Origin: Candidatus Thorarchaeota archaeon
GTDB lineage: Archaea > Asgardarchaeota > Thorarchaeia > Thorarchaeales > Thorarchaeaceae
Length of the DNA: 13,367 nucleotides
Assembly: GCA_016933575.1 (NCBI GenBank)
Contig: JAFGAR010000098.1
Location: 1 to 13,367, forward strand
Reading direction: 5' to 3'
Positions within the stretch are counted from its first letter, which is position 1, and each line of letters begins with the position of its first letter. The position numbers and the translations under genes were made by a program. Under the pieces are notes generated by a model that saw nothing but the letters and a program-made list of their open reading frames with translations, ran no database searches and was not told the origin of the DNA. Of this stretch, positions 10 through 13,173 are shown one piece after another.

Positions 10-465
10 ATGTCGATGTTTCTAAAAGATACAGAAACAAATGTGGATTCTTCTGAACGTGATGTTCAGCAAGTTCCTTTTGTTGAGCTCTATAAGAATC
101 GCATTCAGGGTGTCGTTTCTTCTGGGTCTGATGTGAATAGAGTCTATATCGCATACATTGATTCTGACACTCACAACTACTACTGCAGTACGAATAACAA
201 TAGGCGATGTGGTGGATTACGAGGTTCCTACTGCAAGCATATCCGCTGGATGCTTGATGAAGCCATCCAGCAGTATGGTGTTCTCCGAATAGCGGAATTC
301 CTCCACTTGGACTCGACGCTTTCCGGCGTTCAAACTCACCATCTACACGGCAGAGAGGTGAATGAGAATCTTAGCGAGGTCTTCAGTCGTTTCCTTGGCT
401 ACCTAAAGTATCTTGATGGAACGGCTTCTTCTGTACCAATTCCTGAGTTGTCATGGTTCATCTGA
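10..465 (+). CDS. Small variant SWIM-type zinc-finger protein, first visible gene of a MoxR/YehL-type operon
   Basis: Motif YYCSTNNNRRCGGLRGSYCKHI is C-x7-C-x7-C-x-H (Cys codons at 184, 208, 232; His at 238). It follows a beta-rich segment (IQGVVSSGS..RVYIAYI), as in SWIM proteins. The start is uncertain: ATG at 10 or 16 (GAGG at 6-9 suits 16), and the frame stays open to the window edge. Confidence 0.8.
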   Translation: MSMFLKDTETNVDSSERDVQQVPFVELYKNRIQGVVSSGSDVNRVYIAYIDSDTHNYYCSTNNNRRCGGLRGSYCKHIRWMLDEAIQQYGVLRIAEFLHLDSTLSGVQTHHLHGREVNENLSEVFSRFLGYLKYLDGTASSVPIPELSWFI

Positions 466-476
466 GGTAGCTTGCT

Positions 477-1883
477 ATGAGTGATTACGATTTCGGCAAT
501 CTTCCTGACTTACCTGGTGAAATAGCTGATATTGACAGACTACTAGATGATCTCGACCATTGTCTCCTTGTTGGATTCTCACATTTGACTGACACTGAAA
601 CTGCCATCTTCGAATCGCTACAGTCCGCTCTAGATGGAACTCCTCTTTCAACGCTGATTTCGGGAATCATTGATTCCTACAATCAGAATATTCTAGACGA
701 GTCGTTTTTTGAAAAGCTTTCCATCATTAGATCTTCTCTTCAAACTGTCAAGTATGAGGCTCTAAAGGATCATCTCACGAAGTGTCTTGGCCGCAAAAGG
801 AGAGCTACTGACTTTGCTCCCTCTCCCAGCCCGGGAAATGAACATGCAATACTTGATGCAGTTAGGTCCTTTCTCAAGGACCTTGCAATTGCTGGGTTTG
901 AACGGATAAACAGGGATATCCTCGAGCCTTTTGACACGACTCTCGACAAGATGCTGGATCAAGCCGAGCTATATCCAATTGCTGCCCTCCTCACAGGCTT
1001 CTATAATGAGCTGATCAATGCCCTCCCAATCAATAGCCGCGAAAGCGTTCCTCTCATTCGCTGGTGCGATTTATGGTCTCGTGTGTTTCTCAAGTTGATA
1101 CACCCTAGGATCCCCGCTGAGGCTTCTCTAGTGGACGGAGAGTTCTTCCCGCTCGGGAGTGAATATCTGCATCATCGAAATCTTGTCGCAATACGCTTTC
1201 ATGGACTACTTGAGACAGCCAAAGAAAAGCAGCTTGTGCAAATCACATTCTCCTCTCTCAAGGTGGATATTGTAAATCTACAAAGCTCTCAACATCTAAT
1301 TCCTCAACTTTCGGTATTCCTTCAGGCTCTTTCAGGCTCCTCTCGAATCCTATTGAGGAACTATAATTTATACCCAACAGGTGACCTAGAACAGACACCA
1401 GCCTCTGCCTGCAGCGCGGGGAAGAGCTTTGATAGGATTGGCATGCTGTCCCAGTACTTCTGTATTGGTAGCTCTGATGAATCGATTACTATCAATCAAC
1501 CGCATCCCTTCCATTGTCATCCAGCAGTTCTTGCAGAACCAGTCCTTATTGGCAGTCCTGTTTGGACTATGGAGAAAGAGGAGTACCTCATAGAGATCAA
1601 GGGAACATCCATCCCGATACGATTCAAACATGTTATGCCTGAATTTGGCACCGCGATCAAATCAACAGGTGGATTGGTTTCAATTGAATCCATTTTTGGA
1701 ATCTTAAAGTTTGATAGTGCTCATTGGTTCATTCAGCCTCTCTTGGTTGTCAGTTCGCTTTCAAACAGCTATTTTGCGGGTTCAAGTATGCTAGGTTCCC
1801 AGAACCCTCCAAAGGATGCGAACCAAATCGCCATTCTGAAGGAACGCGCAAGTCGTCTTCTACGAGGGAAAGGAGGCTGTTAG
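477..1883 (+). CDS. Hypothetical protein (468 aa), MoxR/vWA operon-associated; helical N-terminal half, beta-rich C-terminal half
   Basis: Long ORF with GAGGT at 464-468 overlapping the previous stop codon, an 11-nt gap to the upstream gene and a 1-nt gap to the downstream gene. No catalytic motif recognised. Confidence 0.8.
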   Translation: MSDYDFGNLPDLPGEIADIDRLLDDLDHCLLVGFSHLTDTETAIFESLQSALDGTPLSTLISGIIDSYNQNILDESFFEKLSIIRSSLQTVKYEALKDHLTKCLGRKRRATDFAPSPSPGNEHAILDAVRSFLKDLAIAGFERINRDILEPFDTTLDKMLDQAELYPIAALLTGFYNELINALPINSRESVPLIRWCDLWSRVFLKLIHPRIPAEASLVDGEFFPLGSEYLHHRNLVAIRFHGLLETAKEKQLVQITFSSLKVDIVNLQSSQHLIPQLSVFLQALSGSSRILLRNYNLYPTGDLEQTPASACSAGKSFDRIGMLSQYFCIGSSDESITINQPHPFHCHPAVLAEPVLIGSPVWTMEKEEYLIEIKGTSIPIRFKHVMPEFGTAIKSTGGLVSIESIFGILKFDSAHWFIQPLLVVSSLSNSYFAGSSMLGSQNPPKDANQIAILKERASRLLRGKGGC

Positions 1884-1884
1884 A

Positions 1885-3411
1885 TTGGACGAAGGACAAT
1901 TCTCCCGAAGGCGACAGGTCATCTGCTGGCATCTGCTCAAATCTATTATATCCCCGGATGAAGAGGACCAGAACATCGATTTGATGACCAAGGAGATAGT
2001 TGAAGAGCTTGGGCTTCCAGAGATCATCCTCGACCCATCTATTTCAATTGACAACCTCTTGAAACGTTATCCTGAGCTGAAGGAAATCTATGACCTCATT
2101 GACCTCAGTGAGAATGATGCGGCTACCGATGCTGATGTCTCCGATTTCGCAATGGAACTGAAGAAACTCGTCTTACATGCAAAGGTGCTCGGTAACACAT
2201 TGGGTCAAAATACTCAGAGTCCAGTCGTTTCAGCGCAGCAGTATCAGCAATGGACCAAGGATTTGGAATATCTTGAGGGGATGTATCAACTACCACCTGG
2301 TGGAATACGTAAGGGTGGAGTGATGACAAAGACCAGATCGCCACGATTTGATGATCGAGAAACCAGTGCTCAAGGAAAGGTGACAAAGGGGCGCGGGGGT
2401 CGCAGTCGACCACATCCTGGAGCGGGGCGGACAGGACGTGACTCAGGGAGTCCTTCTGGGGGTGGAGGACAAGGTGCATCAACTGAGACCCGTGACATAG
2501 GTCCTCGAACCTCTCTAATCGATATACCCGACCTGACCTTCATCGACAATGAGCTTATCGAGCGGATGAAGATACGAGAGATGCTCGAAGATGATGAACT
2601 GGCCGCTAAGCTCACGCCTTCCATGGGTCTCATCGAGCAACTGCTCTATGAGAAATCCAACATCTCAGGAATCGCGCTCAAGAATGCAAAGTCACTCATC
2701 AAACGTTTCGTGACCCAAATGACGGAGGTCCTCAAAATTATGGTCGACCAAACCCCTACCGGGAAAATAGACTACTCAGTCCCTCCGAAGCGGGTCTTCA
2801 GAAATCTGGATATGAAGCGTACAATCTGGAGGAACCTCCCCTATTGGGATCCTGAATCCCGCAAGCTCTACATCAATCATCTGTACTATCATCATACTGC
2901 TAAGAAGAAGAATCCGAAGCGATTGATCGTCGTAGTGGATCAATCAGGTTCGATGGTCGACGCCATGGTTCAGTGCACCATACTCGCCTCTATCTTTGCT
3001 GGAATCCCCAATGTTTCAGTCGATTTGCTGGCATTCGATACAAGAATACTTGATCTAACGCCTTGGGTCAGTGATCCATTCGAGGCATTACTACGCACAC
3101 AACTAGGTGGAGGCACGCATATCTATCAAGCGCTCGTTGAGGCAGCGAATCGCGTGACGAATCCAAAGAGCACTGCTATCGTCCTGATCTCGGACTTCTA
3201 TGAGGGCGGTAGCCGCGAGGTCCTGTTTGATTATATTAAATCGTTGATTGATTCAGATATCCATTTCATACCGGTAGGGTCTGTTACCTCTTCTGGCTAC
3301 TTCAGTGTGGACGAGTGGTTCAGATCCAAGTTGAAATCAATTGGACATCCAATCCTTACAGGAAGTCCGAAGAAGCTTATAGCTGAGATAAAGCAAGCCA
3401 TTGTAACGTAG
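1885..3411 (+). CDS. vWA domain protein (VWA_CoxE / YehP-like), MoxR partner
   Basis: TTG start at 1885 with AGGAGG at 1871-1876. Complete MIDAS: VVVDQSGSM (D at 2938), GGGTHI and LISDFYEG. The pre-vWA segment LDMKRTIWRNL is typical of CoxE/YehP-like proteins. Confidence 0.9.
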   Translation: MDEGQFSRRRQVICWHLLKSIISPDEEDQNIDLMTKEIVEELGLPEIILDPSISIDNLLKRYPELKEIYDLIDLSENDAATDADVSDFAMELKKLVLHAKVLGNTLGQNTQSPVVSAQQYQQWTKDLEYLEGMYQLPPGGIRKGGVMTKTRSPRFDDRETSAQGKVTKGRGGRSRPHPGAGRTGRDSGSPSGGGGQGASTETRDIGPRTSLIDIPDLTFIDNELIERMKIREMLEDDELAAKLTPSMGLIEQLLYEKSNISGIALKNAKSLIKRFVTQMTEVLKIMVDQTPTGKIDYSVPPKRVFRNLDMKRTIWRNLPYWDPESRKLYINHLYYHHTAKKKNPKRLIVVVDQSGSMVDAMVQCTILASIFAGIPNVSVDLLAFDTRILDLTPWVSDPFEALLRTQLGGGTHIYQALVEAANRVTNPKSTAIVLISDFYEGGSREVLFDYIKSLIDSDIHFIPVGSVTSSGYFSVDEWFRSKLKSIGHPILTGSPKKLIAEIKQAIVT

Positions 3412-3422
3412 GAGTTGAAAGC

Positions 3423-4601
3423 ATGTCGAAAAAAGGAAAATCAATGAAAGTGGCTCAGGTTACTCCCGCAAAGACATCCAAACCGTCCTCAGAGGAAGTA
3501 GAGATACTTCGTGAACCAGCTGAGGTGAAGTACAAGGATGAGCTGGAATACCTGATCTCGATAGACCCGGAAACAAAGCCTTTCTCATGGCATTTGTCTC
3601 CACGAATGGTCCGCATCTTCATTTTGGGAAGTGAAAAGTCTGACAAGCTCGATAGAACCATCAATCAGAAATGGTTCGGAGCTTCTTCTATCGTCGAACG
3701 GGCGATTGTCACCTTGGCATCTGATAGAGGGTTGCTGCTGATCGGTGACCCGGGGACCGGTAAGAGCTGGCTGGCTGAGTTGCTAGCAGCAGCAATCAGT
3801 CGCAATTCGGTGAATGTCCTGCAAGGGACCGCTGGAACGACAGAGGATCAGATTAAGTACAGCTGGAACATCGCCCAAGTCATAGCAGAGGGACAGTCAC
3901 GAGATGCGCTCATTCCTTCTCCTCTCATGACCTCAATGGTGCAAGGGAGTATTGGTCGGTTCGAGGAGCTCACAAGATGTACCAGTGATGTACAAGATGC
4001 ACTAATCTCGATAATGAGTGAGAAGTATATCTCCATACCTGAACTGGATATACGGAATATGGTCTTCGCCAAGCCTGGCTTCAACATCATCGCCACCGCG
4101 AACAGCCGCGATCGAGGCGTGAATGATCTATCCTCCGCATTGAAGCGACGCTTCAACTTCGTTCACATCCCTATTGTGACGAACAAGAAGATCGAAACAG
4201 AGATCATCGAATTCAGGACACAAGATCTGATGTCAAGGCATGGATTCCAGGTTGCAGTTCCTCCCACATTGCTCAACATATTAATCCAGACATTCAATGA
4301 CCTTCGAGAATTCAATGCATCAGCAACCTCTGACGACACCAGACTTGAATCTGCTTTATCCACTGCCGAGCAGATTGGAGTACTTGAGGATGCGGTTCTC
4401 TATAGTAGATTCTTCAACGCCGATAAACTGGAATCAGGCATTCTGGGACAATCTCTTGTAACAACCCTGATTCGCCGGTTCCCTGAGGATGTATCCATTC
4501 TGAACAAGTTCTGGCATGGAGTGGTCGAACGCTACGCCAAAGACGATACAGAATGGAAGGAATTCGCGGCTGGAGGAAAGACCGCTATGACGAAGCTCTG
4601 A
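3423..4601 (+). CDS. MoxR-family AAA+ ATPase (AAA_5, YehL-like subfamily)
   Basis: Walker A GDPGTGKS (3744-3767), Walker B GRFEELTR (3954-3977), sensor-1 ATANSRD and Arg finger LKRRF. The segments EPAEVKYKDEL and QGTAGTTEDQIKYSWN are YehL-like. GGAG SD lies at 3411-3414. Confidence 0.93.
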   Translation: MSKKGKSMKVAQVTPAKTSKPSSEEVEILREPAEVKYKDELEYLISIDPETKPFSWHLSPRMVRIFILGSEKSDKLDRTINQKWFGASSIVERAIVTLASDRGLLLIGDPGTGKSWLAELLAAAISRNSVNVLQGTAGTTEDQIKYSWNIAQVIAEGQSRDALIPSPLMTSMVQGSIGRFEELTRCTSDVQDALISIMSEKYISIPELDIRNMVFAKPGFNIIATANSRDRGVNDLSSALKRRFNFVHIPIVTNKKIETEIIEFRTQDLMSRHGFQVAVPPTLLNILIQTFNDLREFNASATSDDTRLESALSTAEQIGVLEDAVLYSRFFNADKLESGILGQSLVTTLIRRFPEDVSILNKFWHGVVERYAKDDTEWKEFAAGGKTAMTKL

Positions 4602-4630
4602 GATACCTGGTAGTGGAGGGAGGCGCTCTT

Positions 4631-7396
4631 ATGACTATCAGGATTGATTACTCACCTCTTCGCGAGCAAATTGAAACCCTCGCAAAGAAATACTCGCCAA
4701 AAGGAACGAAAGCAGACCAGTTCCTTCTCTCTATGGTTAATGATGTCGAGCGTGCCATGGCTGAAACCTTAGAGATCTTTCCGGTCTGTCATCATTCACC
4801 TTCCTCTGCTCTTCACCTTCTCCGTCGCTTGAGTGAGAAACCTGTCAAAGCAATCTATGTGGAGATGTGTGAGGACCTACGAGAGCTTGTCGATATGCTT
4901 CCTGAATGCGAACTACCGGTAGCACTCCAAGCATTTGCAGGTGCTTCTGATGCGTTTCCCGAGGAATGGTTTCCTCTTACTGTTGTAGCCCCCCTCACAG
5001 AATCGTCAGCTGAGTATCAGGCTATTGCTTATGCCATTAGCAATCCTGATGTCGACCTAGTCTTTGTGGATCGTGCAGTTGACTATATCTTCCAAAATAT
5101 CGATCAAAAGGGGATGGAACTAAAGACGCTCATCCCTGATGCCAACGAGAAAGGTGAGAGTGCCGCGCTAGGTATACGAGTTGGTGACATGATGCCTACC
5201 ATGGAGAGCTTTCTTGCCTTCCTTCTGAAGAATGCGCGGGTCAGGCACTTCTCAGAGTGGTGGGATCAATATGTTGATCAAGCGCTGCTCTCAGCAGACT
5301 ATCAGAACTATCGTCAGATTCTATTCCTGATAGGGAGTCTATTCAGAAAGATCGGGACAGAGCCAAAGGAACTTGATGAGAGCCGCATGAGAGAACGCTT
5401 CATGTGGACACGAATAAAGCAGCATATGAAGCAGACGGGCATCAAGCCATCGGATGCCATCTATATCTGTGGTGCTTCCCACTCAGTCTGCGAGGTTTCT
5501 GAATTTGGGACCGACTCCGACGTTCTTTGGGACATACCTCCAAGGACAGCCACCAACTGGTTGTATGGCCTTATTCCGTATAGCTTCAGTGCTATTGAGA
5601 AGCAATTCGACATGTTTCCTGGTATGATATCCATCTCCGAACGGACATGGAAAAAGGGATTGGCCTCTCAGCAACTGAGTCCACTCGCTGTGGGGAAATC
5701 AAGGGGACGAAAATCCGATGAGCAGAAAGCAGCAAGACGACCTGCGAGAACGACGAAGTCATCCAAGCAGCCTAGCGATGACTCTATCTCTATCGATGAC
5801 ATGCTATCCTATCTGATAAAGCCTCCATCTCAAATCAAGGCCGATGATGAAGAGCTGGTCCGAAATTGCGTTGAGATCGTCTCTCTTGCACGGTCAAATG
5901 GCTATCTCGCTAGTACCGCTGACTCTATTGCTATCTACGAAACCTCTTTGCTATTAGCGAATCTTCGAGAGCGGATTCAACCATCCTTCTTTGATTTCCA
6001 GGATGCTGCTGTCACATGTCTGGAAAAAGACTATGTGCCGAAAAACAAAAACATCTTTCAGCTCTGTCATGAGATGCTCTCAATCGACAAGATGGGAAGG
6101 GTTGGCTATACTTCCTTGCCCCCCCTGGCACAGGACGTGTACGACCGTCTATCAGTGCTTCAGGGAGTCAACTTGAAGGCAAAAACCAATCAGCGCGCAC
6201 TCATGGATTTCAAGAAGAATCTCAAGTACTTGGATTGCTCAGATGTCCTTTGGCAGATTCATTACCTGCTTCCCTCCATTGACATCGTTGTTCCTATCAT
6301 GGGAGAACTTGAGTTGGGTAAGGAGCGACTGCAAGAATCATGGGATATCAAGTTCGGGAAGCAGCAAGCTGCATTGATCCAGCTAGGTTATGAGGGAATC
6401 TCACTCGAACAGGTCATAGAGCAACGTATGAATCGAATCTGTTTTAGGGATGGTGCGAAATCAGGAGAAGTGCTGCAAATCGCAAAGGATAGCATTCTAC
6501 TTCTACGTAGTCCACGGTTTACTGAATCCCTAGGTTCACATGCCGAGCATCAGCTAGCTACAGAACTAGGTGTTGAGGATGCACCTGACAATTACCGCAT
6601 TATTCGCGAGCTGATATACTATTACCAAGCGACTTCAAAGGGAGTTCCTGATTGGATCAAGAGTTATGTTGCAACCGGATACTCCCACTATATCTCAATG
6701 TTGCCACAGGCTTTCGTCGATAGAGGGACTACTCCTGAGCAAATCGCTGGGATGCTCAACTTCATTCTGACCCTGGAGAACTTGGCGATATCTATGGGTT
6801 GCAACCGAACTCAGCTCGTGATAGCACTCCAGAATATCGGGGTGCCATCGCATGAGATCGATCCGAATAAACTAGGACTATTGTGGTCTGCTGAATGGCT
6901 GTTGCGAATGCGTACACTTGAGGACATTCGATCGCACTTCGAGTTGCTATTCACGAATCCTCTATTGATGAATAACATACCTCAGTATGTACGAGGTTTC
7001 CTCCTCTCGCTAACCTTCGCTCCTGGCATATCATCATTCATCGTGGAGATTTTGAGTAGAATCTACTCCTCTGTACCAACGAAAGCTCTTCTTCCTTGGC
7101 TACTGAATCAGCTCCTTGAGCTCAGAGTTAATAGAGGCGTCGTACTGGAACTTCTGAGAGATGTGATTCTAATCCATCCCACAAGTCTCAAGGAACTTGA
7201 CAACTGGTCGCCTCCGTGGGAAAAGGAGTCTATGTCCACCGTGGATACACAAACTCAATCCCTTTCAAAGGAATCATCCGCCTTGGAGAAAGAACGTTCT
7301 TCCGTATCAGAGGCCTTTACTACTTATGCACCAAGTATCAAGGCTCTCCTCAAGGCATGTGGTGTCATGGTGCAGGATGACTCTCACACTACGTGA
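4631..7396 (+). CDS. DUF5682 / YehM-like large protein (921 aa)
   Basis: Start reassigned from 4553 to the ATG at 4631, which has GGAGGGAGG at 4615-4623 and does not overlap the ATPase. Motifs PVCHHSPSSA, SAEYQAIAYA, RERFM, YICGASH and YLASTADSIA match my recollection of DUF5682/YehM proteins, which are encoded beside YehL-type ATPases. Confidence 0.85.
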   Translation: MTIRIDYSPLREQIETLAKKYSPKGTKADQFLLSMVNDVERAMAETLEIFPVCHHSPSSALHLLRRLSEKPVKAIYVEMCEDLRELVDMLPECELPVALQAFAGASDAFPEEWFPLTVVAPLTESSAEYQAIAYAISNPDVDLVFVDRAVDYIFQNIDQKGMELKTLIPDANEKGESAALGIRVGDMMPTMESFLAFLLKNARVRHFSEWWDQYVDQALLSADYQNYRQILFLIGSLFRKIGTEPKELDESRMRERFMWTRIKQHMKQTGIKPSDAIYICGASHSVCEVSEFGTDSDVLWDIPPRTATNWLYGLIPYSFSAIEKQFDMFPGMISISERTWKKGLASQQLSPLAVGKSRGRKSDEQKAARRPARTTKSSKQPSDDSISIDDMLSYLIKPPSQIKADDEELVRNCVEIVSLARSNGYLASTADSIAIYETSLLLANLRERIQPSFFDFQDAAVTCLEKDYVPKNKNIFQLCHEMLSIDKMGRVGYTSLPPLAQDVYDRLSVLQGVNLKAKTNQRALMDFKKNLKYLDCSDVLWQIHYLLPSIDIVVPIMGELELGKERLQESWDIKFGKQQAALIQLGYEGISLEQVIEQRMNRICFRDGAKSGEVLQIAKDSILLLRSPRFTESLGSHAEHQLATELGVEDAPDNYRIIRELIYYYQATSKGVPDWIKSYVATGYSHYISMLPQAFVDRGTTPEQIAGMLNFILTLENLAISMGCNRTQLVIALQNIGVPSHEIDPNKLGLLWSAEWLLRMRTLEDIRSHFELLFTNPLLMNNIPQYVRGFLLSLTFAPGISSFIVEILSRIYSSVPTKALLPWLLNQLLELRVNRGVVLELLRDVILIHPTSLKELDNWSPPWEKESMSTVDTQTQSLSKESSALEKERSSVSEAFTTYAPSIKALLKACGVMVQDDSHTT

Positions 7397-9263: not shown

Positions 9264-12176
9264 TCATCGGCGCTTTCTACAGGTTAGGATTATGATTACA
9301 AGGAGCAGGATGCCTCCTGCTGCCAGTACTAGGGTCATATTCTCCTGCAACCAATCGATGATGCTTGTTGTAGGTGGTAGGGGTCCTGTTGTAGAAGTAG
9401 TTGTACCAGTGGTAGTCGAAGTGTCTGTCGTTGATGTCGTAGTTGTGGTGGTGGTTGTAGTGGTCGAGGCAGGATTGACGGTGTATGCTACTTCTGAAGT
9501 TACTGCTCTATTCATTGCATAATCATAGACTGCAACTCTGAACTTCACTGTCAAGGGGGCTGGGATTGGAGTTATCGTACCGATCCAATGAGTTCCGTTG
9601 AACGTCATGGCGATGAGATTTGTATTGATCCAGTTATCAACTGAGAACTCGATGTCTACACCCCAGATACCCGATGCATTGGTGGGTTCTGACGCCTGGA
9701 TCGCGACATCAACAAACGTGGGATCAATCACAGTTGCCGTTGCATTGTTCCAGAAGGAGATAATTGTTGGTGCAATAGTGTCTGTGACAATGTATTCTCC
9801 TCCAACAATTGGATTTCCTTTTGCTGAGATGTTTACAGGCATGATCCTATACTTGATGTTCGTGGAATACGCATGACTGGGAATTGATGCAGAGTATATG
9901 CCACTTGACAAAGTCATGTTCGTATGGGTCAATGACGACCAGTCATCATGTGTCCAGTCAAATATCACGAAGTCTGCATTGGTAATATTGGCAGTGACAA
10001 CGAAGGTTTCGTTGTATTCTGGTGGCATTGGAGCCTCAGTGGTTTCCCATATGACTGGTATCTCTCTTGTTTCCTCTATCGCCTTGGAAATGTTAAGCTT
10101 GCCATATCCCCATGCCGTGCTCGCTACTCCTGGGGGCGGGGGTATTGAGCCTGTGAATGCATCATTGTATGCTGTTCCCTCAATGATGTCCTTCACTATT
10201 GGACCACAATCGCGATTCAATTGAAGTATCAGCGCAGCAGCTCCGGCGACATGAGGTCCGGAAGCTGAGGTTCCGCTGAACAATCGATAGCCTCCGAAGA
10301 CATCATCAAGCGCAAATGCACCGTAAGCATCGAACCATGTTGCCCATGCAGAGTCACTCGACCACGCAGAGATGACATCCCATCCACCAGGTGCTGCGAT
10401 TGACATCTTCGCATTACCATCAATTCGTGGTCCAATGGATGAGAACGCAGCAAGGGTTCCCGCAGAGGTCCCAAATGCAGGAATTGTCCTCGTGTGATAT
10501 GATGCCACTGAGATGGCAGTGTCTGCAGTAGATGGCCATGTTATTGTGTTTTGATTTGTCAATCCATGCGACCCCGACCATCCAGCACCATCACTCCATG
10601 CGCTGGCATCATCTGATATGTAGAAATGGTAATCTGCCGTTAATGTGTTATTGACTGCAATCGACCACCATGTATTGTGATAGAGAACACCAGAGATGTC
10701 AATGGCAATCATATGCCAAGAGCCTCTCGTGGAATTTGCTATGAACGTATCAATCGTAACATTCGTCCCTGTTGAAGCTCTCGCCCATTGATAGTATCCA
10801 AAACCAAAAGATAGCTGATGAGTTATTGAACCATAAGCTGTTGGCTCTGTGATATTTACCTGTACATTATTCACTAGTTGATCACAAAGTACGGTAATAT
10901 ACATCTCAGTCGCAGACATGTATTGATATCCTGTGCGATTTAGCATGAAATCTGTAGATAGGATTGCGTTCGCGCTAGCAGATCGATAAGCATGTCTATA
11001 ACCGCCTTGCAGATTGCCTGCAGGGACGATGACCGGTATCCCACTTGTCGTCAGGGTATCAATCATCATCTCGACGTTGCTTGATCCATCTAGGAACTCA
11101 TAGGTCCATGAGCCAACCTCAATGAGGATGACATCTGCACCATGATCGCGAGCCCATACGAGACCTTCCTCCACTGTCAAACCATCTGTCCCGAAGATAT
11201 TGATAGCCATCAATTCCGCATCCGGTGCGACACCCACATACTTCCTGTACCCAAGCTGTCCACCATTGAGAATCCCTGCAACTCCTGTCCCGTGGCCGTC
11301 TGTGTCATAGAAGGTGCTTGAGGTGAGATTGACACCTCTTTCCCATGCGCGTATTGAGCCACCAATTTTATGAACGAGATATTTCGTCTTTGGTGTCTTT
11401 AGCCGGACTAGGTAATCAACGCCTCCAAGTACGTTATTGGAGTCAGTATCGTTTACGGCAAAGAAAGTATCTCCATCATCGATAGACCCGACCGTAGTGC
11501 CATTGTCCAGCCAAATCCAGTCGACTGTCGCATCTACGCTTCCATCCTGATTGACATCAATGGCATAGAGCTTCTCGTTGTTCTCAATTGCATAGTTGCC
11601 ATTCAAGTCAACGCCATCAGTGCCATTGTTAAAGACCCATGGAGGCGTACTTGAGGTCTCGAAGTATTGGATACTGGGACCATCAGCGAAGTAGAAATCT
11701 GGGTGTCGCCATTGAATTCCTGTATCAAGGTCTGCGATTAGGATCCCTTCGCCTGTGAGATTCTCTCCGAAATAGTCATTCATCTGCCATGCAAGGTCCG
11801 CGTAGCAATCGGTGATGGACACATCCCGAGGGGATTGATAGAATGATTGTTTCAAGGGTTCAGACTGTTCGAACAACCAATCCGTTTCGAGATGCTTCAG
11901 TGCTACCTTTGATGCTTGAGCGATATATACCGAACCGATATGTTGAGGCGAGTCTCCGAAATGGATTCCCTTGCTTTCATAGTATGCAATCTCATTGGGC
12001 ATAAGCTCTCGTTCAAATCGTACTGTGACATCTTCTTTCTCTCCACTGTCGATAAATTCCTCCAGTGGGAGCCATTCTCCACTCTGCTCAACCTCCATTT
12101 GCTGGGCCTGCGGGACTGGATTAATGATGATACACATTGAAACAATAAGCATGCCAAGAATAAGCGTGCGCTTCAC
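9264..12176 (-). CDS. Secreted, C-terminally membrane-anchored S8 (subtilisin-like) serine protease, ~970 aa
   Basis: Start reassigned to the GTG at 12176 (SD AGGAGAGG at 12191-12184), giving the signal peptide MKRTLILGMLIVSMCIII. Catalytic triad: DLDTG (Asp 11724-11726), GHGTGVAG (His 11292-11294) and GTSASGPHVAG (Ser 10266-10268). Oxyanion PAGN (Asn 11013-11015). Two Ig/FN3-like C-terminal repeats, a Thr-rich linker, a TM helix and an RKRR tail follow. Confidence 0.93.
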   Translation of the reverse strand: MKRTLILGMLIVSMCIIINPVPQAQQMEVEQSGEWLPLEEFIDSGEKEDVTVRFERELMPNEIAYYESKGIHFGDSPQHIGSVYIAQASKVALKHLETDWLFEQSEPLKQSFYQSPRDVSITDCYADLAWQMNDYFGENLTGEGILIADLDTGIQWRHPDFYFADGPSIQYFETSSTPPWVFNNGTDGVDLNGNYAIENNEKLYAIDVNQDGSVDATVDWIWLDNGTTVGSIDDGDTFFAVNDTDSNNVLGGVDYLVRLKTPKTKYLVHKIGGSIRAWERGVNLTSSTFYDTDGHGTGVAGILNGGQLGYRKYVGVAPDAELMAINIFGTDGLTVEEGLVWARDHGADVILIEVGSWTYEFLDGSSNVEMMIDTLTTSGIPVIVPAGNLQGGYRHAYRSASANAILSTDFMLNRTGYQYMSATEMYITVLCDQLVNNVQVNITEPTAYGSITHQLSFGFGYYQWARASTGTNVTIDTFIANSTRGSWHMIAIDISGVLYHNTWWSIAVNNTLTADYHFYISDDASAWSDGAGWSGSHGLTNQNTITWPSTADTAISVASYHTRTIPAFGTSAGTLAAFSSIGPRIDGNAKMSIAAPGGWDVISAWSSDSAWATWFDAYGAFALDDVFGGYRLFSGTSASGPHVAGAAALILQLNRDCGPIVKDIIEGTAYNDAFTGSIPPPPGVASTAWGYGKLNISKAIEETREIPVIWETTEAPMPPEYNETFVVTANITNADFVIFDWTHDDWSSLTHTNMTLSSGIYSASIPSHAYSTNIKYRIMPVNISAKGNPIVGGEYIVTDTIAPTIISFWNNATATVIDPTFVDVAIQASEPTNASGIWGVDIEFSVDNWINTNLIAMTFNGTHWIGTITPIPAPLTVKFRVAVYDYAMNRAVTSEVAYTVNPASTTTTTTTTTTSTTDTSTTTGTTTSTTGPLPPTTSIIDWLQENMTLVLAAGGILLLVIIILTCRKRR
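9364..9472 (-). repeat. Low-complexity Thr/Ser-rich coding repeat (linker of the surface protease)
   Basis: Encodes STTTTTTTTTTSTTDTSTTTGTTTSTTGPLPPTTS using mixed ACN codons, so it is a protein-level repeat rather than a microsatellite. Confidence 0.85.
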
Positions 12177-12218
12177 CTTGATACCTCTCCTAATTGCATG
12201 TATCGCAGGCAAAGGTGA

Positions 12219-12262
12219 CATATAAGCTTCTGCTGATTCTATTTTTCGAAAGGTTTTATGCT
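12219..12262. promoter_or_regulatory. Back-to-back archaeal promoters for the subtilase (-) and GNAT-OB (+) genes
   Basis: Minus strand CAGAAG-CTTATATG (TATA-like 12226-12219, about 43 nt from the GTG). Plus strand CGAAAAGG-TTTTATGC (BRE and TATA-like, 12247-12262). Confidence 0.55.
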
Positions 12263-12378
12263 CTTCAGCTTTTGTGGAAACATCTAGAATTTGCTGCATA
12301 TTGCTCAGTAACATTAGTATAGAGGAGAGGGGGAACAGTGATCTGAAGACGGAGATAATATGTGGAGGGATGAAGAAC

Positions 12379-13173
12379 ATGACAAGATCTGTGTCAATCG
12401 AGTTCGCACAACCAGAAGATGCTGAGAAACTTGCTGACATCTCGAAACGAGCCTTTGATTCTGATATTGAGGTCGGAGCCTCTGGTCCGGGAGGTCCCCC
12501 GGAATATGATTCCATTGAGGCGCATCGAAGAGATACCGGGTTGGAACAAACGGATTACTGGAAGATTATCTTTAATGGCCAAATAGTTGGCGGAATGAGA
12601 GTATTCAGAGTCACTCCTGAGCATTGTGACATCTATGGTGTCTTCATAGACCCTGATTTCCATAGGCAAGGAATAGGTAGTGAGTTCTTCAGACTGATCG
12701 AGATCAAATATCCTCAGGTAAAGAAATGGTCATTAGACACACCGATATGGAATGTTCGAACGAAGGTGTTCTACGAGAAGTTGGGCTTCGTTCAGCTGGG
12801 CATACTAAGGTGGGTGCCTGATTTTGATTTGCGCTACTATGCAAAGATGACCGATAAGGACTTTCAACTAGTCACGACAAAGATATCCGACCTTTCTCCT
12901 GGCTTGGGGGGACTCCGAGTCGAAGGAGTGGTTCAAAGCATCTCAACAACAAGAGAAGTGACTTCACCTATGGATGGGAAAAGGCATCATGTTGCAAATG
13001 CGACCCTTGTTGATGATACTGGGTCCGTGATCTTGGTTCTTTGGAACGATCAAATCCGACAGATTCATGAAGGAGAGAGAATTCGGGTCGAAGATGCACA
13101 TGTCAAAGAATTCAATGGACAACTACAACTAAGTCTTGAGAGAGGTGGACAATTGGTGATCTTACAGGTTTGA
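12379..13173 (+). CDS. GNAT-family N-acetyltransferase fused to a C-terminal SSB/RPA-type OB fold (264 aa)
   Basis: Start ATG at 12379 (alternative 12370) after GGAGGG at 12364-12369. GNAT acetyl-CoA motif FIDPDFHRQGIGSEFF and motif NVRTKVFYEKLGF. The C-terminal KISDLSPG..VEGVV..VANATLVDDTGSVILVLWND..EGERIRVEDAHVKEFNGQLQL is a single OB fold of the crenarchaeal SSB/hSSB1/archaeal RPA type. Confidence 0.9.
   Translation: MTRSVSIEFAQPEDAEKLADISKRAFDSDIEVGASGPGGPPEYDSIEAHRRDTGLEQTDYWKIIFNGQIVGGMRVFRVTPEHCDIYGVFIDPDFHRQGIGSEFFRLIEIKYPQVKKWSLDTPIWNVRTKVFYEKLGFVQLGILRWVPDFDLRYYAKMTDKDFQLVTTKISDLSPGLGGLRVEGVVQSISTTREVTSPMDGKRHHVANATLVDDTGSVILVLWNDQIRQIHEGERIRVEDAHVKEFNGQLQLSLERGGQLVILQV

Follow-up and report, generated by a model that had tools for sequence, protein, structure and literature searches.

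Why should an acetyltransferase of the GNAT family carry at its C-terminus an OB fold of the type found in single-stranded-DNA-binding (SSB) proteins? The question is raised by a gene at positions 12379..13173 (+) of the window, the whole stretch of DNA analysed here, which is a complete 13,367-bp contig (C75) of a 3.47-Mb, 215-contig archaeal metagenome-assembled genome (MAG; 85.5% completeness, 6.9% contamination). The host is an Asgard (Thorarchaeota-like) archaeon, and the product, which we call GNAT-OB, is a protein of 264 aa encoded by a complete coding sequence that closes with TGA. Much is known of GNATs and of SSB-type OB folds taken singly, but we know of no earlier account of a conserved protein in which the two are covalently joined. 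The answer that we favour, with slightly more doubt than confidence, is that the GNAT is active, that the OB fold tethers it to single-stranded nucleic acid or lets such strands gate it, and that the acceptor is an amine on something bound there.

Reality and distribution of the fusion

Only one long open reading frame runs across the interval (12274..13173, +), and it contains no internal stop. Its likely start codon is the ATG at 12379, because the spacing from a Shine-Dalgarno-like GGAGG motif (12364..12368, +; read from the sequence, 10 nt before this ATG), the N-termini of homologues and the identical 264-aa database entry P0002 all agree on it; another candidate, the ATG at 12370, directly abuts the GGAGG motif. 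The stop codon occupies 13171-13173. Both domains score above their Pfam cut-offs within this single frame, and the in-frame fusion of a GNAT to an OB fold that the initial annotation had read from the letters therefore stands. Database names for these proteins go no further than 'GNAT family N-acetyltransferase'.

The most trivial answer to our question would be that assembly or gene calling has joined a GNAT gene to an SSB gene, and a 13.4-kb metagenomic contig from a MAG with the contamination given above is a place where this might happen. However, the frame is continuous, and independent assemblies effectively refute such an artefact, whose probability we regard as negligible. A word-indexed search of 5.8 billion proteins returned more than 110 clusters (at 90% identity) that combine these two domains in 256-307 aa, at 36-66% identity, and whose source names point to Thor-, Hod-, Odin-, Prometheo- and Bathyarchaeota, and the clusters with the same junction are drawn from NCBI, JGI, ENA and Logan assemblies. 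A chimera or chance junction, as well as a fusion confined to this assembly, which had been named at the outset as what would undo the idea, is ruled out by these numbers. When 1.84 billion representatives (50% identity) were searched exhaustively with a profile, the matches comprised about 14 representative clusters of full length, many standalone GNATs of the same subfamily, and OB folds of SSB and RPA proteins. Among GTDB species representatives 572 stretches encode a relative, and both domains are spanned in 69 of the 80 best loci, the titles of which name Thor-, Hod-, Hermod-, Heimdall- and Prometheoarchaeota, Bathyarchaeia and Theionarchaea.

Within the window's phylum a full-length match (E < 1e-70) occurs in about 62 of 301 sampled genomes, with an uneven spread: 21 of 26 in the window's genus, 17 of 51 in the rest of its family, 9 of 19 and 13 of 21 in two further families, and 2 of 68 in the largest family. 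The class of the Bathyarchaeota genome G301 (Bathyarchaeia) yields 30 of 201 sampled genomes. The window's own genome holds three GNAT-OB paralogs on three contigs. The two others, on C196 (268 aa; L008:949-1755) and C156 (263 aa; L009:4352-5143), are 67% identical to each other and 44% identical to the window copy. Their neighbours include a P-type cation ATPase, a NosD-like beta-helix protein and EutA-like ATPases. One full-length GNAT-OB lies in a MAG labelled 'Krumholzibacteriaceae' (L037, DATKWN010000031.1) on a contig syntenic with three Bathyarchaeia loci (L039, L040 and L045); mis-binning of an archaeal contig into a bacterial MAG is the probable cause.

The fusion thus extends across Asgard groups, Bathyarchaeia and Theionarchaea, which answers the call for its taxonomic range and splits one of the earlier suggestions in two. 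The host is indeed an Asgard archaeon, but a bearing on the origin of eukaryotic acetylation-linked genome maintenance is unsupported, because the family is found equally in Bathyarchaeia and Theionarchaea, is patchy within Asgard archaea, and sits in variable neighbourhoods that are not replication or repair loci. No eukaryotic counterpart of the family was seen, and the family, not being Asgard-specific, has by itself no bearing on eukaryogenesis.

The acetyltransferase domain

Residues 1-158 (12379..12852, +) constitute a GNAT acetyltransferase domain. Over residues ~56-141 Pfam scores Acetyltransf_7 (PF13508) at 42.5 bits (cut-off 27) and Acetyltransf_1 (PF00583) at 40.5 bits (cut-off 20.7), and structure comparison likewise places the domain in the GNAT superfamily (VIA-align Z 17.9, root-mean-square deviation (rmsd) 2.3 over 150 residues; Z 17-18 against many GNATs over model residues 1-160). 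The acetyl-CoA (pyrophosphate-binding) motif H-R-Q-G-I-G-S (residues 95-101; 12661..12681, +), in the Pfam-matched GNAT motif A region, follows strand 4 and has the form (Q/R)-x-x-G-x-(G/A), with His here in the first position instead of Gln or Arg. Conservation was counted over 119 full-length fused members of the family, of which 117 keep G98 of this motif.

Two blocks give the subfamily its signature. The loop G-A-S-G-P-G-G-P-P-E-Y-D-S (residues 33-45; 12475..12513, +) lies between helices 1 and 2 and is, by analogy, presumed to be the acceptor-side loop; its G33, G39, P40, Y43 and D44 are invariant or nearly so in the 119 fused members and in standalone bacterial homologues. The second block, T-P-x-W-N-x-R-T-x-x-F-Y-E-K-L-G-F (residues 121-137; 12739..12789, +), is common to standalone homologues as well, and W124 (118), N125, R127 and Y132 (116 each) and G136 (117) are retained almost throughout the fused members. 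Tyr132 is the conserved tyrosine of the domain, and its retention is consistent with transfer of an acetyl group from acetyl-CoA to an amine. The complete family signature comprises K-R-A-F-D-S-D, the loop G-x-x-G-P-G-G-P-P-G-Y-D-S, G98 and W-x-L-x-T-P-x-W-N-x-R-T-x-x-F-Y-E-K-L-G-F; the majority of its positions are more than 95% conserved, and the same residues are invariant in standalone GNATs of 150-185 aa.

Such constancy on the acceptor side can also be explained in another way, which is our main alternative and which we consider unlikely, if worth serious attention: GNAT-OB might be a small-molecule acetyltransferase with one fixed small acceptor (a xenobiotic, genotoxin, antibiotic, polyamine or amino-acid analogue), and the OB fold would park the enzyme on nucleic acid, where cationic or DNA-binding compounds of this kind accumulate, or would help to bind the compound. 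The residues G33, G38-P40, Y43, D44, W124, N125 and R127 are invariant in fused archaeal and standalone bacterial members alike, at 40-47% identity, and varied proteins would explain this pattern no better than a fixed small acceptor. By sequence and profile the nearest solved relatives include the polyamine acetyltransferase PaiA (1tiq) and the canavanine-selective GNAT 8osp (PMC10416765). However, structural neighbours with the same Z include the protein N-terminal and lysine acetyltransferases RimI, Ard1 and PA4794, and a small-molecule enzyme leaves unexplained why an SSB-type OB fold with conserved stacking residues has been retained for so long.

The OB fold

The C-terminal domain (residues 168-264; 12880..13170, +) is an SSB/hSSB1-type OB fold, as profiles, sequence matches in the PDB and a model of the domain on its own all indicate. 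The Ssb-like_OB profile (PF21473) matches the C-terminal ~76 residues at 36.2 bits (cut-off 24), and at 38.4 bits, again above the cut-off, in the scan of the whole genome; the best NCBIfam match, over the C-terminal third, is the crenarchaeal-type SSB PRK06461 (E 3.7e-16). In the PDB the sequence matches human SSB1 (hSSB1; 5d8e, E 5e-7) and the SSB of S. solfataricus (SsoSSB; 1o7i, E 1e-6). The tRNA_anti-codon OB family (PF01336) also matches, at 29.2 bits.

Whole-model fold searches return GNATs only (Foldseek TMq <= 0.51; VIA-align Z 15-18), and the OB fold was therefore modelled alone for this purpose. The resulting AlphaFold2 model (pLDDT 92.4) is a five-stranded OB barrel that superposes on SsoSSB (1o7i_B; TM 0.85, rmsd 1.6) and on hSSB1 in its complex with single-stranded DNA (ssDNA) (5d8f_B; TM 0.80, rmsd 1.8, 31% identity). 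It also matches OB-1 of P. abyssi RPA, followed by RPA70, POT1, Teb1 and TEBP. OB folds that bind ssDNA make up nearly all of the first ~40 listed Foldseek matches; some HIN domains, which bind dsDNA, come lower in the list.

At the level of single residues, the D-D-T-G turn (residues 212-215; 13012..13023, +) aligns with D-E-T-G of SsoSSB and D-K-T-G of hSSB1, and its D212 is kept in 118 of the 119 fused members. HMMER alignments identify Trp222 (13042..13044, +; 117/119) as the equivalent of the base-stacking W56 of SsoSSB and W55 of hSSB1, Phe245 (13111..13113, +; F in 81 and Y in 35 members) as that of F79 and F78, and His241 (13099..13101, +) as the residue at the position of W75 and Y74. 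They agree in this with the by-eye assignment of the DxTG turn, of the aromatics in LVLW and KEF to W56 and F79 of the Sulfolobus protein, and of a His to W75. Two of the three aromatic positions are hence identical in the window copy and the third is His, an atypical residue in a family that has Y in 104, F in 6 and H in 3 of its members at position 241. Further conserved positions are R/K192 (114), V194 (114) and Q250 (115), and the pair 197-198 is mostly basic. W222, Y/F241, F/Y245, R/K192, V194 and D212 correspond to positions that we take to contact ssDNA in SsoSSB and hSSB1. As far as the alignment can tell, both the aromatic and the polar contact positions of the SSB type are under selection in the family, and this is our main argument that the OB fold would still bind single strands.

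The chain stops 2-3 residues past the last OB strand. The acidic C-terminal tail, stated from the start to be missing, is indeed absent, as is any flexible one. Since there is no such tail and the fold is fused to an enzyme, the OB fold is an SSB-type domain but the whole protein is not an SSB protein.

Arrangement of the two domains

AlphaFold2 models the whole protein with high confidence (pLDDT 94.7, pTM 0.86; 44-sequence alignment). The interdomain linker of nine residues (159-167; 12853..12879, +) is variable in sequence and is modelled at pLDDT 93-95, and an independent ESM Atlas model superposes on that of a different family member with TM 0.86 over 260 residues. Because the linker is confident and Atlas models of different members superpose, the two domains are predicted to sit in one fixed arrangement. 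No solved chain that covers both domains was among the listed Foldseek and VIA-align matches.

A rigid coupling through so short a linker, if the model is right, raises the idea that the nucleic acid itself is the acceptor. The OB fold would then feed a strand into the GNAT cleft, where a base (ac4C-like, or in DNA), the 3'-aminoacyl group of a tRNA or a terminal amine would be acetylated. The match of the OB fold to PF01336 agrees with this idea, and precedents exist: the GNATs TmcA and NAT10 acetylate RNA cytidine, the GNAT toxins TacT and AtaT acetylate aminoacyl-tRNA, and Mom of phage Mu is a GNAT-fold DNA modifier. Nevertheless we think it quite improbable. Pfam reveals no TmcA-type helicase or tRNA-binding module in GNAT-OB, and the same GNAT subfamily does without any nucleic-acid-binding domain in bacteria.

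Origin of the two halves

In a tree of 90 OB domains all 35 sampled fused OB folds form one clade (SH-aLRT 99), which is nested with the genome's own short SSBs and two-OB proteins and lies apart from multi-OB RPA (SH-aLRT 95); against the profile of the fused OB folds, the 127-aa SSB of this genome reaches 92 bits. The comparison with archaeal SSB and RPA that the initial annotation had proposed thus sides the fused OB folds with the short SSBs, and tree and profile together indicate that the OB fold was recruited once, from the short SSB lineage. The genome contains 11 Ssb-like_OB matches in total. Four of these belong to short SSB-type OB proteins of 184-204 aa (L003, C156:393-656; L004, C215:25058-25321; L005, C137:11940-12203; L007, C7:55306-55572), which have Gly/Arg-rich, RGG-like C-terminal tails (GGYGG...RDRR repeats) and no acidic tail.

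In the GNAT-domain tree fused and standalone forms interleave, with 7 changes, but many of the short rows may be fragments, and the tree points to no particular origin of the GNAT half. Standalone GNATs of the subfamily (150-185 aa) occur in Clostridia/Lachnospiraceae, Chloroflexota, Actinomycetota and Myxococcales, and also in archaea, and are 40-49% identical over the GNAT half. Other partners have been joined to the same subfamily in bacteria, namely pentapeptide repeats (P0174, P0269 and a 56-member Bacillota cluster in the Atlas), a SWIM zinc finger (P0138), a transglutaminase-like core (P0172) and, by eye, an NlpC/P60-like Cys-His domain (P0223). Two further proteins, P0176 and P0151, have C-terminal extensions that resemble low-complexity read-through and were not counted as fusions. 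We found no description of a GNAT-pentapeptide fusion in the searchable literature.

Genomic neighbourhood

In the window the GNAT-OB gene is preceded by a divergent gene for an S8 subtilase and followed by a convergent open reading frame, and the contig ends 194 bp downstream. The subtilase (9264-12515, -) is large, with a Thr-rich stalk, a C-terminal hydrophobic membrane anchor and a basic tail. With its mechanically called start at 12515 it would run into the GNAT-OB gene; translation probably begins instead at an internal Met, which a signal-peptide-like stretch follows near 12225. Further upstream, positions 10-7396 (+) hold a five-gene module (SWIM / unknown / vWA / MoxR-AAA+ / DUF5682-like), which bears no similarity to the contexts of other GNAT-OB loci. 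Ten loci from the same phylum, seven of them from the window's genus, contain no close ortholog (<= 62% identity) and no synteny with the window.

Neighbours were surveyed by BLAST clustering of 1038 open reading frames from 82 loci and by Pfam tallies of the 136 nearest and 125 next-nearest neighbours at 71 archaeal loci. Neither approach found a conserved partner at the archaeal loci. The commonest families among the nearest neighbours are MFS transporters (6), S-adenosylmethionine-dependent methyltransferases (5), other GNATs (5) and HTH_24 proteins (4), and among the next-nearest creatininases (5), methyltransferases (4) and ICMT/PEMT proteins (4). Over both approaches the most recurrent neighbours are ICMT/PEMT-like methyltransferases (12 loci, at variable distance and strand), MFS transporters, aldo-keto reductases and helix-turn-helix (HTH) regulators.

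A subset of these neighbours would suit an enzyme that acts on small molecules. GyrI-like effector-binding regulators adjoin members in both domains of life: an ArsR-GyrI protein is present in L011 and L013, and at L085 an AraC-type regulator carries a GyrI-like/Cass2 domain, the only AraC-type regulator in which Pfam confirms a GyrI-like domain. Relatives of the L085 regulator in its BLAST cluster stand beside L088 and L090, with nothing but the AraC HTH recognised by Pfam in an L088 protein. Bacterial standalone members are found behind XRE-type HTH genes (four Clostridia loci) and beside AraC-type or WYL regulators. MFS transporters, aldo-keto reductases, PhzF proteins and methyltransferases are frequent neighbours and point the same way. 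However, the signal is weak, as no family accounts for more than 6 of the 136 nearest neighbours.

An exception to the lack of a conserved partner is a Thorarchaeota subclade represented by L012 and L013, to which, of the genome loci fetched, the window copy is closest (62% identity). Here GNAT-OB either overlaps the stop of a genuine uvrA, with UvrA_inter and UvrA_DNA-bind domains, by 4 nt or starts 4 nt beyond it. The surrounding island (L013:2559-15854, Thorarchaeota MAG LCG1B.475) further encodes a DinB_2 protein, an ArsR-GyrI-like regulator, a Pol-beta-type nucleotidyltransferase, a second GNAT, a squalene-cyclase-like protein and a double UvrA-like ATPase of 1631 aa. In content it resembles a cluster for the response to genotoxins or xenobiotics, and the company of DinB_2, the nucleotidyltransferase, another GNAT and UvrA-like ATPases also speaks for a small-molecule acceptor. 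The window's genome has two tandem uvrA-like genes of its own (L091 and L092; open frames of 1003 and 944 aa at G000:C138:~89000-95400), which show no linkage to any of its GNAT-OB paralogs.

The neighbourhoods speak further against acetylation of the nucleic acid itself. There is no antitoxin-like partner gene in the window, none recurs among the 261 neighbours, and no antitoxin-type family is among the 25 commonest families of either the nearest or the next-nearest set. The anti-phage defence models of PADLOC-DB v2 gave no family at E <= 0.01 for any of the genome's three paralogs.

Proposed function

For the reading that we favour we infer acetyl transfer, strand binding, coupling of the domains and the nature of the acceptor as follows. 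GNAT-OB would be an acetyl-CoA-dependent N-acetyltransferase that attaches to single-stranded nucleic acid, to ssDNA and possibly to RNA, through its C-terminal OB fold. Exposed single strands would concentrate the enzyme or switch it on allosterically, and an amine on a strand-associated protein or another ligand would be acetylated there. Several observations may be cited in its support: both domains are intact and modelled confidently as one unit, the GNAT keeps in its sequence the acetyl-CoA motif and the conserved Tyr, and the gene adjoins uvrA in the L012/L013 subclade. The fusion has persisted at 36-66% identity, in several archaeal phyla and as up to three paralogs in one genome, which is an argument for cooperation of the two activities.

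There are, on the other side, several points that weigh against strand-directed acetylation. The 261 neighbours of the 71 loci include no replication or repair gene that is conserved beside GNAT-OB, and genuine uvrA adjoins GNAT-OB in only two of these loci. The acceptor-side signature that is common to standalone bacterial GNATs suggests one fixed acceptor group and not diverse strand-bound proteins. In the fixed arrangement that is modelled, the GNAT could cover the conserved aromatic face, which would then not be free for DNA. The window copy itself has Pro-Met at positions 197-198, in place of the Ser-Lys of its own clade and the mostly basic residues of the wider family; it has the His at 241; and the net charge of its OB fold is -3.

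The last three features would fit an OB fold that no longer binds nucleic acid and has become a module for protein-protein contact, oligomerisation or substrate recognition, its one-time DNA face lying against the GNAT or a partner. The fusions of the same GNAT subfamily to modules that do not bind DNA (the pentapeptide repeats, the transglutaminase-like core and the NlpC/P60-like domain) set an example for such a role. We hold a loss of binding to be improbable for the family, although it may apply at least to the window copy: polar and basic contacts (R/K192 and the pair 197-198) are kept in the family, not just hydrophobic ones; the C196 and C156 paralogs of the same genome retain the full W/Y(F)/Y stacking set as well as the basic pair; and the bona fide SSB OB folds of this genome are equally acidic, with net charges of -4 to 0.

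A more specific form of strand-directed acetylation, which we put forward as an unlikely idea, is an ssDNA-gated acetylation switch, in which the OB fold senses strands that arise from replication stress or damage and licenses the GNAT to mark strand-bound proteins or the nucleic acid. The sensing of stress or damage is hinted at by the uvrA-coupled subclade. Such a switch, if true, would represent a prokaryotic principle of signalling or modification without characterised precedent. More generally, if the OB fold directs or gates the enzyme, GNAT-OB would be the first acetyltransferase from archaea to contain its own sensor of single strands, and would offer a direct biochemical handle on acetylation in the genome maintenance or RNA metabolism of Asgard and Bathyarchaeia archaea, a subject on which, to our knowledge, hardly any enzymology has been done. 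GNAT-OB is abundant, with hundreds of species of sediment archaea that carry it and as many as three copies in one genome, and since its members are small and confidently modelled, expression and testing should be easy.

Comparison with known systems

The searchable literature yielded no description of a GNAT+OB architecture, only the structure paper for the distant GNAT 8osp having surfaced, which bears out the earlier remark that no characterised protein with this architecture is known. Comparison must therefore be made half by half. The OB fold belongs to the same single-OB family (PF21473) as SsoSSB (the crenarchaeal SSB; 1o7i, 2mna, 7wcg) and human SSB1/NABP2 (5d8e, 5d8f, 4oww), and resembles both in fold (TM 0.80-0.85, rmsd 1.6-1.9 for the OB-only model), in the D-x-T-G turn, in the equivalents of W56/W55 and F79/F78 and, as the family consensus, in the Tyr at 241 that corresponds to Y74 of hSSB1. 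In contrast to these proteins, GNAT-OB has no flexible or acidic tail and its OB fold is the C-terminal module of an enzyme, and the window copy has His at the W75/Y74 position and no basic pair at 197-198. The equivalent of hSSB1 Y85 is Asn, Ser or Gly in the GNAT-OB family. Archaeal and eukaryotic RPA, built of tandem OB folds with a zinc-finger OB or as a heterotrimer, is a different system: GNAT-OB has a single OB fold and is separated from RPA in the tree mentioned above.

The GNAT half shares its fold, the acetyl-CoA motif and the conserved Tyr with the compact GNATs RimI/Ard1, PA4794, PaiA/SpeG and the canavanine GNAT 8osp of L. curiae (Z 15-18 over ~150 residues; Foldseek E 1e-8 to 1e-10). 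However, these are only 12-21% identical to it, and none of them possesses the G-P-G-G-P-P-G-Y-D-S loop, the T-P-x-W-N-x-R-T block or an OB fold; their substrate class is not transferable to GNAT-OB. Standalone GNATs of the same subfamily, among which searches by name and in the literature found no characterised member, have all signature residues but lack the OB fold and differ in their XRE, AraC-type or WYL regulator neighbours.

Closer in organisation, by mechanistic analogy only, are MtPat/Rv0998, the cAMP-dependent protein acetyltransferase of mycobacteria, and Pat/YfiQ, in which a ligand-binding domain is combined with a GNAT and ligand binding controls or places acetylation. Their sensors are unrelated (cNMP-binding or NDP-forming acyl-CoA-synthetase-like, in contrast to an OB fold), and the order of the domains is another. 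TmcA/NAT10 and TacT/AtaT are likewise analogous in that a GNAT catalytic domain is coupled with recognition of nucleic acid, but GNAT-OB has neither their helicase or tRNA-binding module nor an antitoxin partner, and it has no PADLOC match. The small operonic antitoxin that characterises the GNAT toxin-antitoxin modules (TacT/AtaT/ItaT) is missing beside it. By analogy, then, GNAT-OB would work most like the GNATs with a regulatory domain (MtPat type) or the nucleic-acid-directed GNATs (TmcA type), with which it presumably shares only the GNAT fold.

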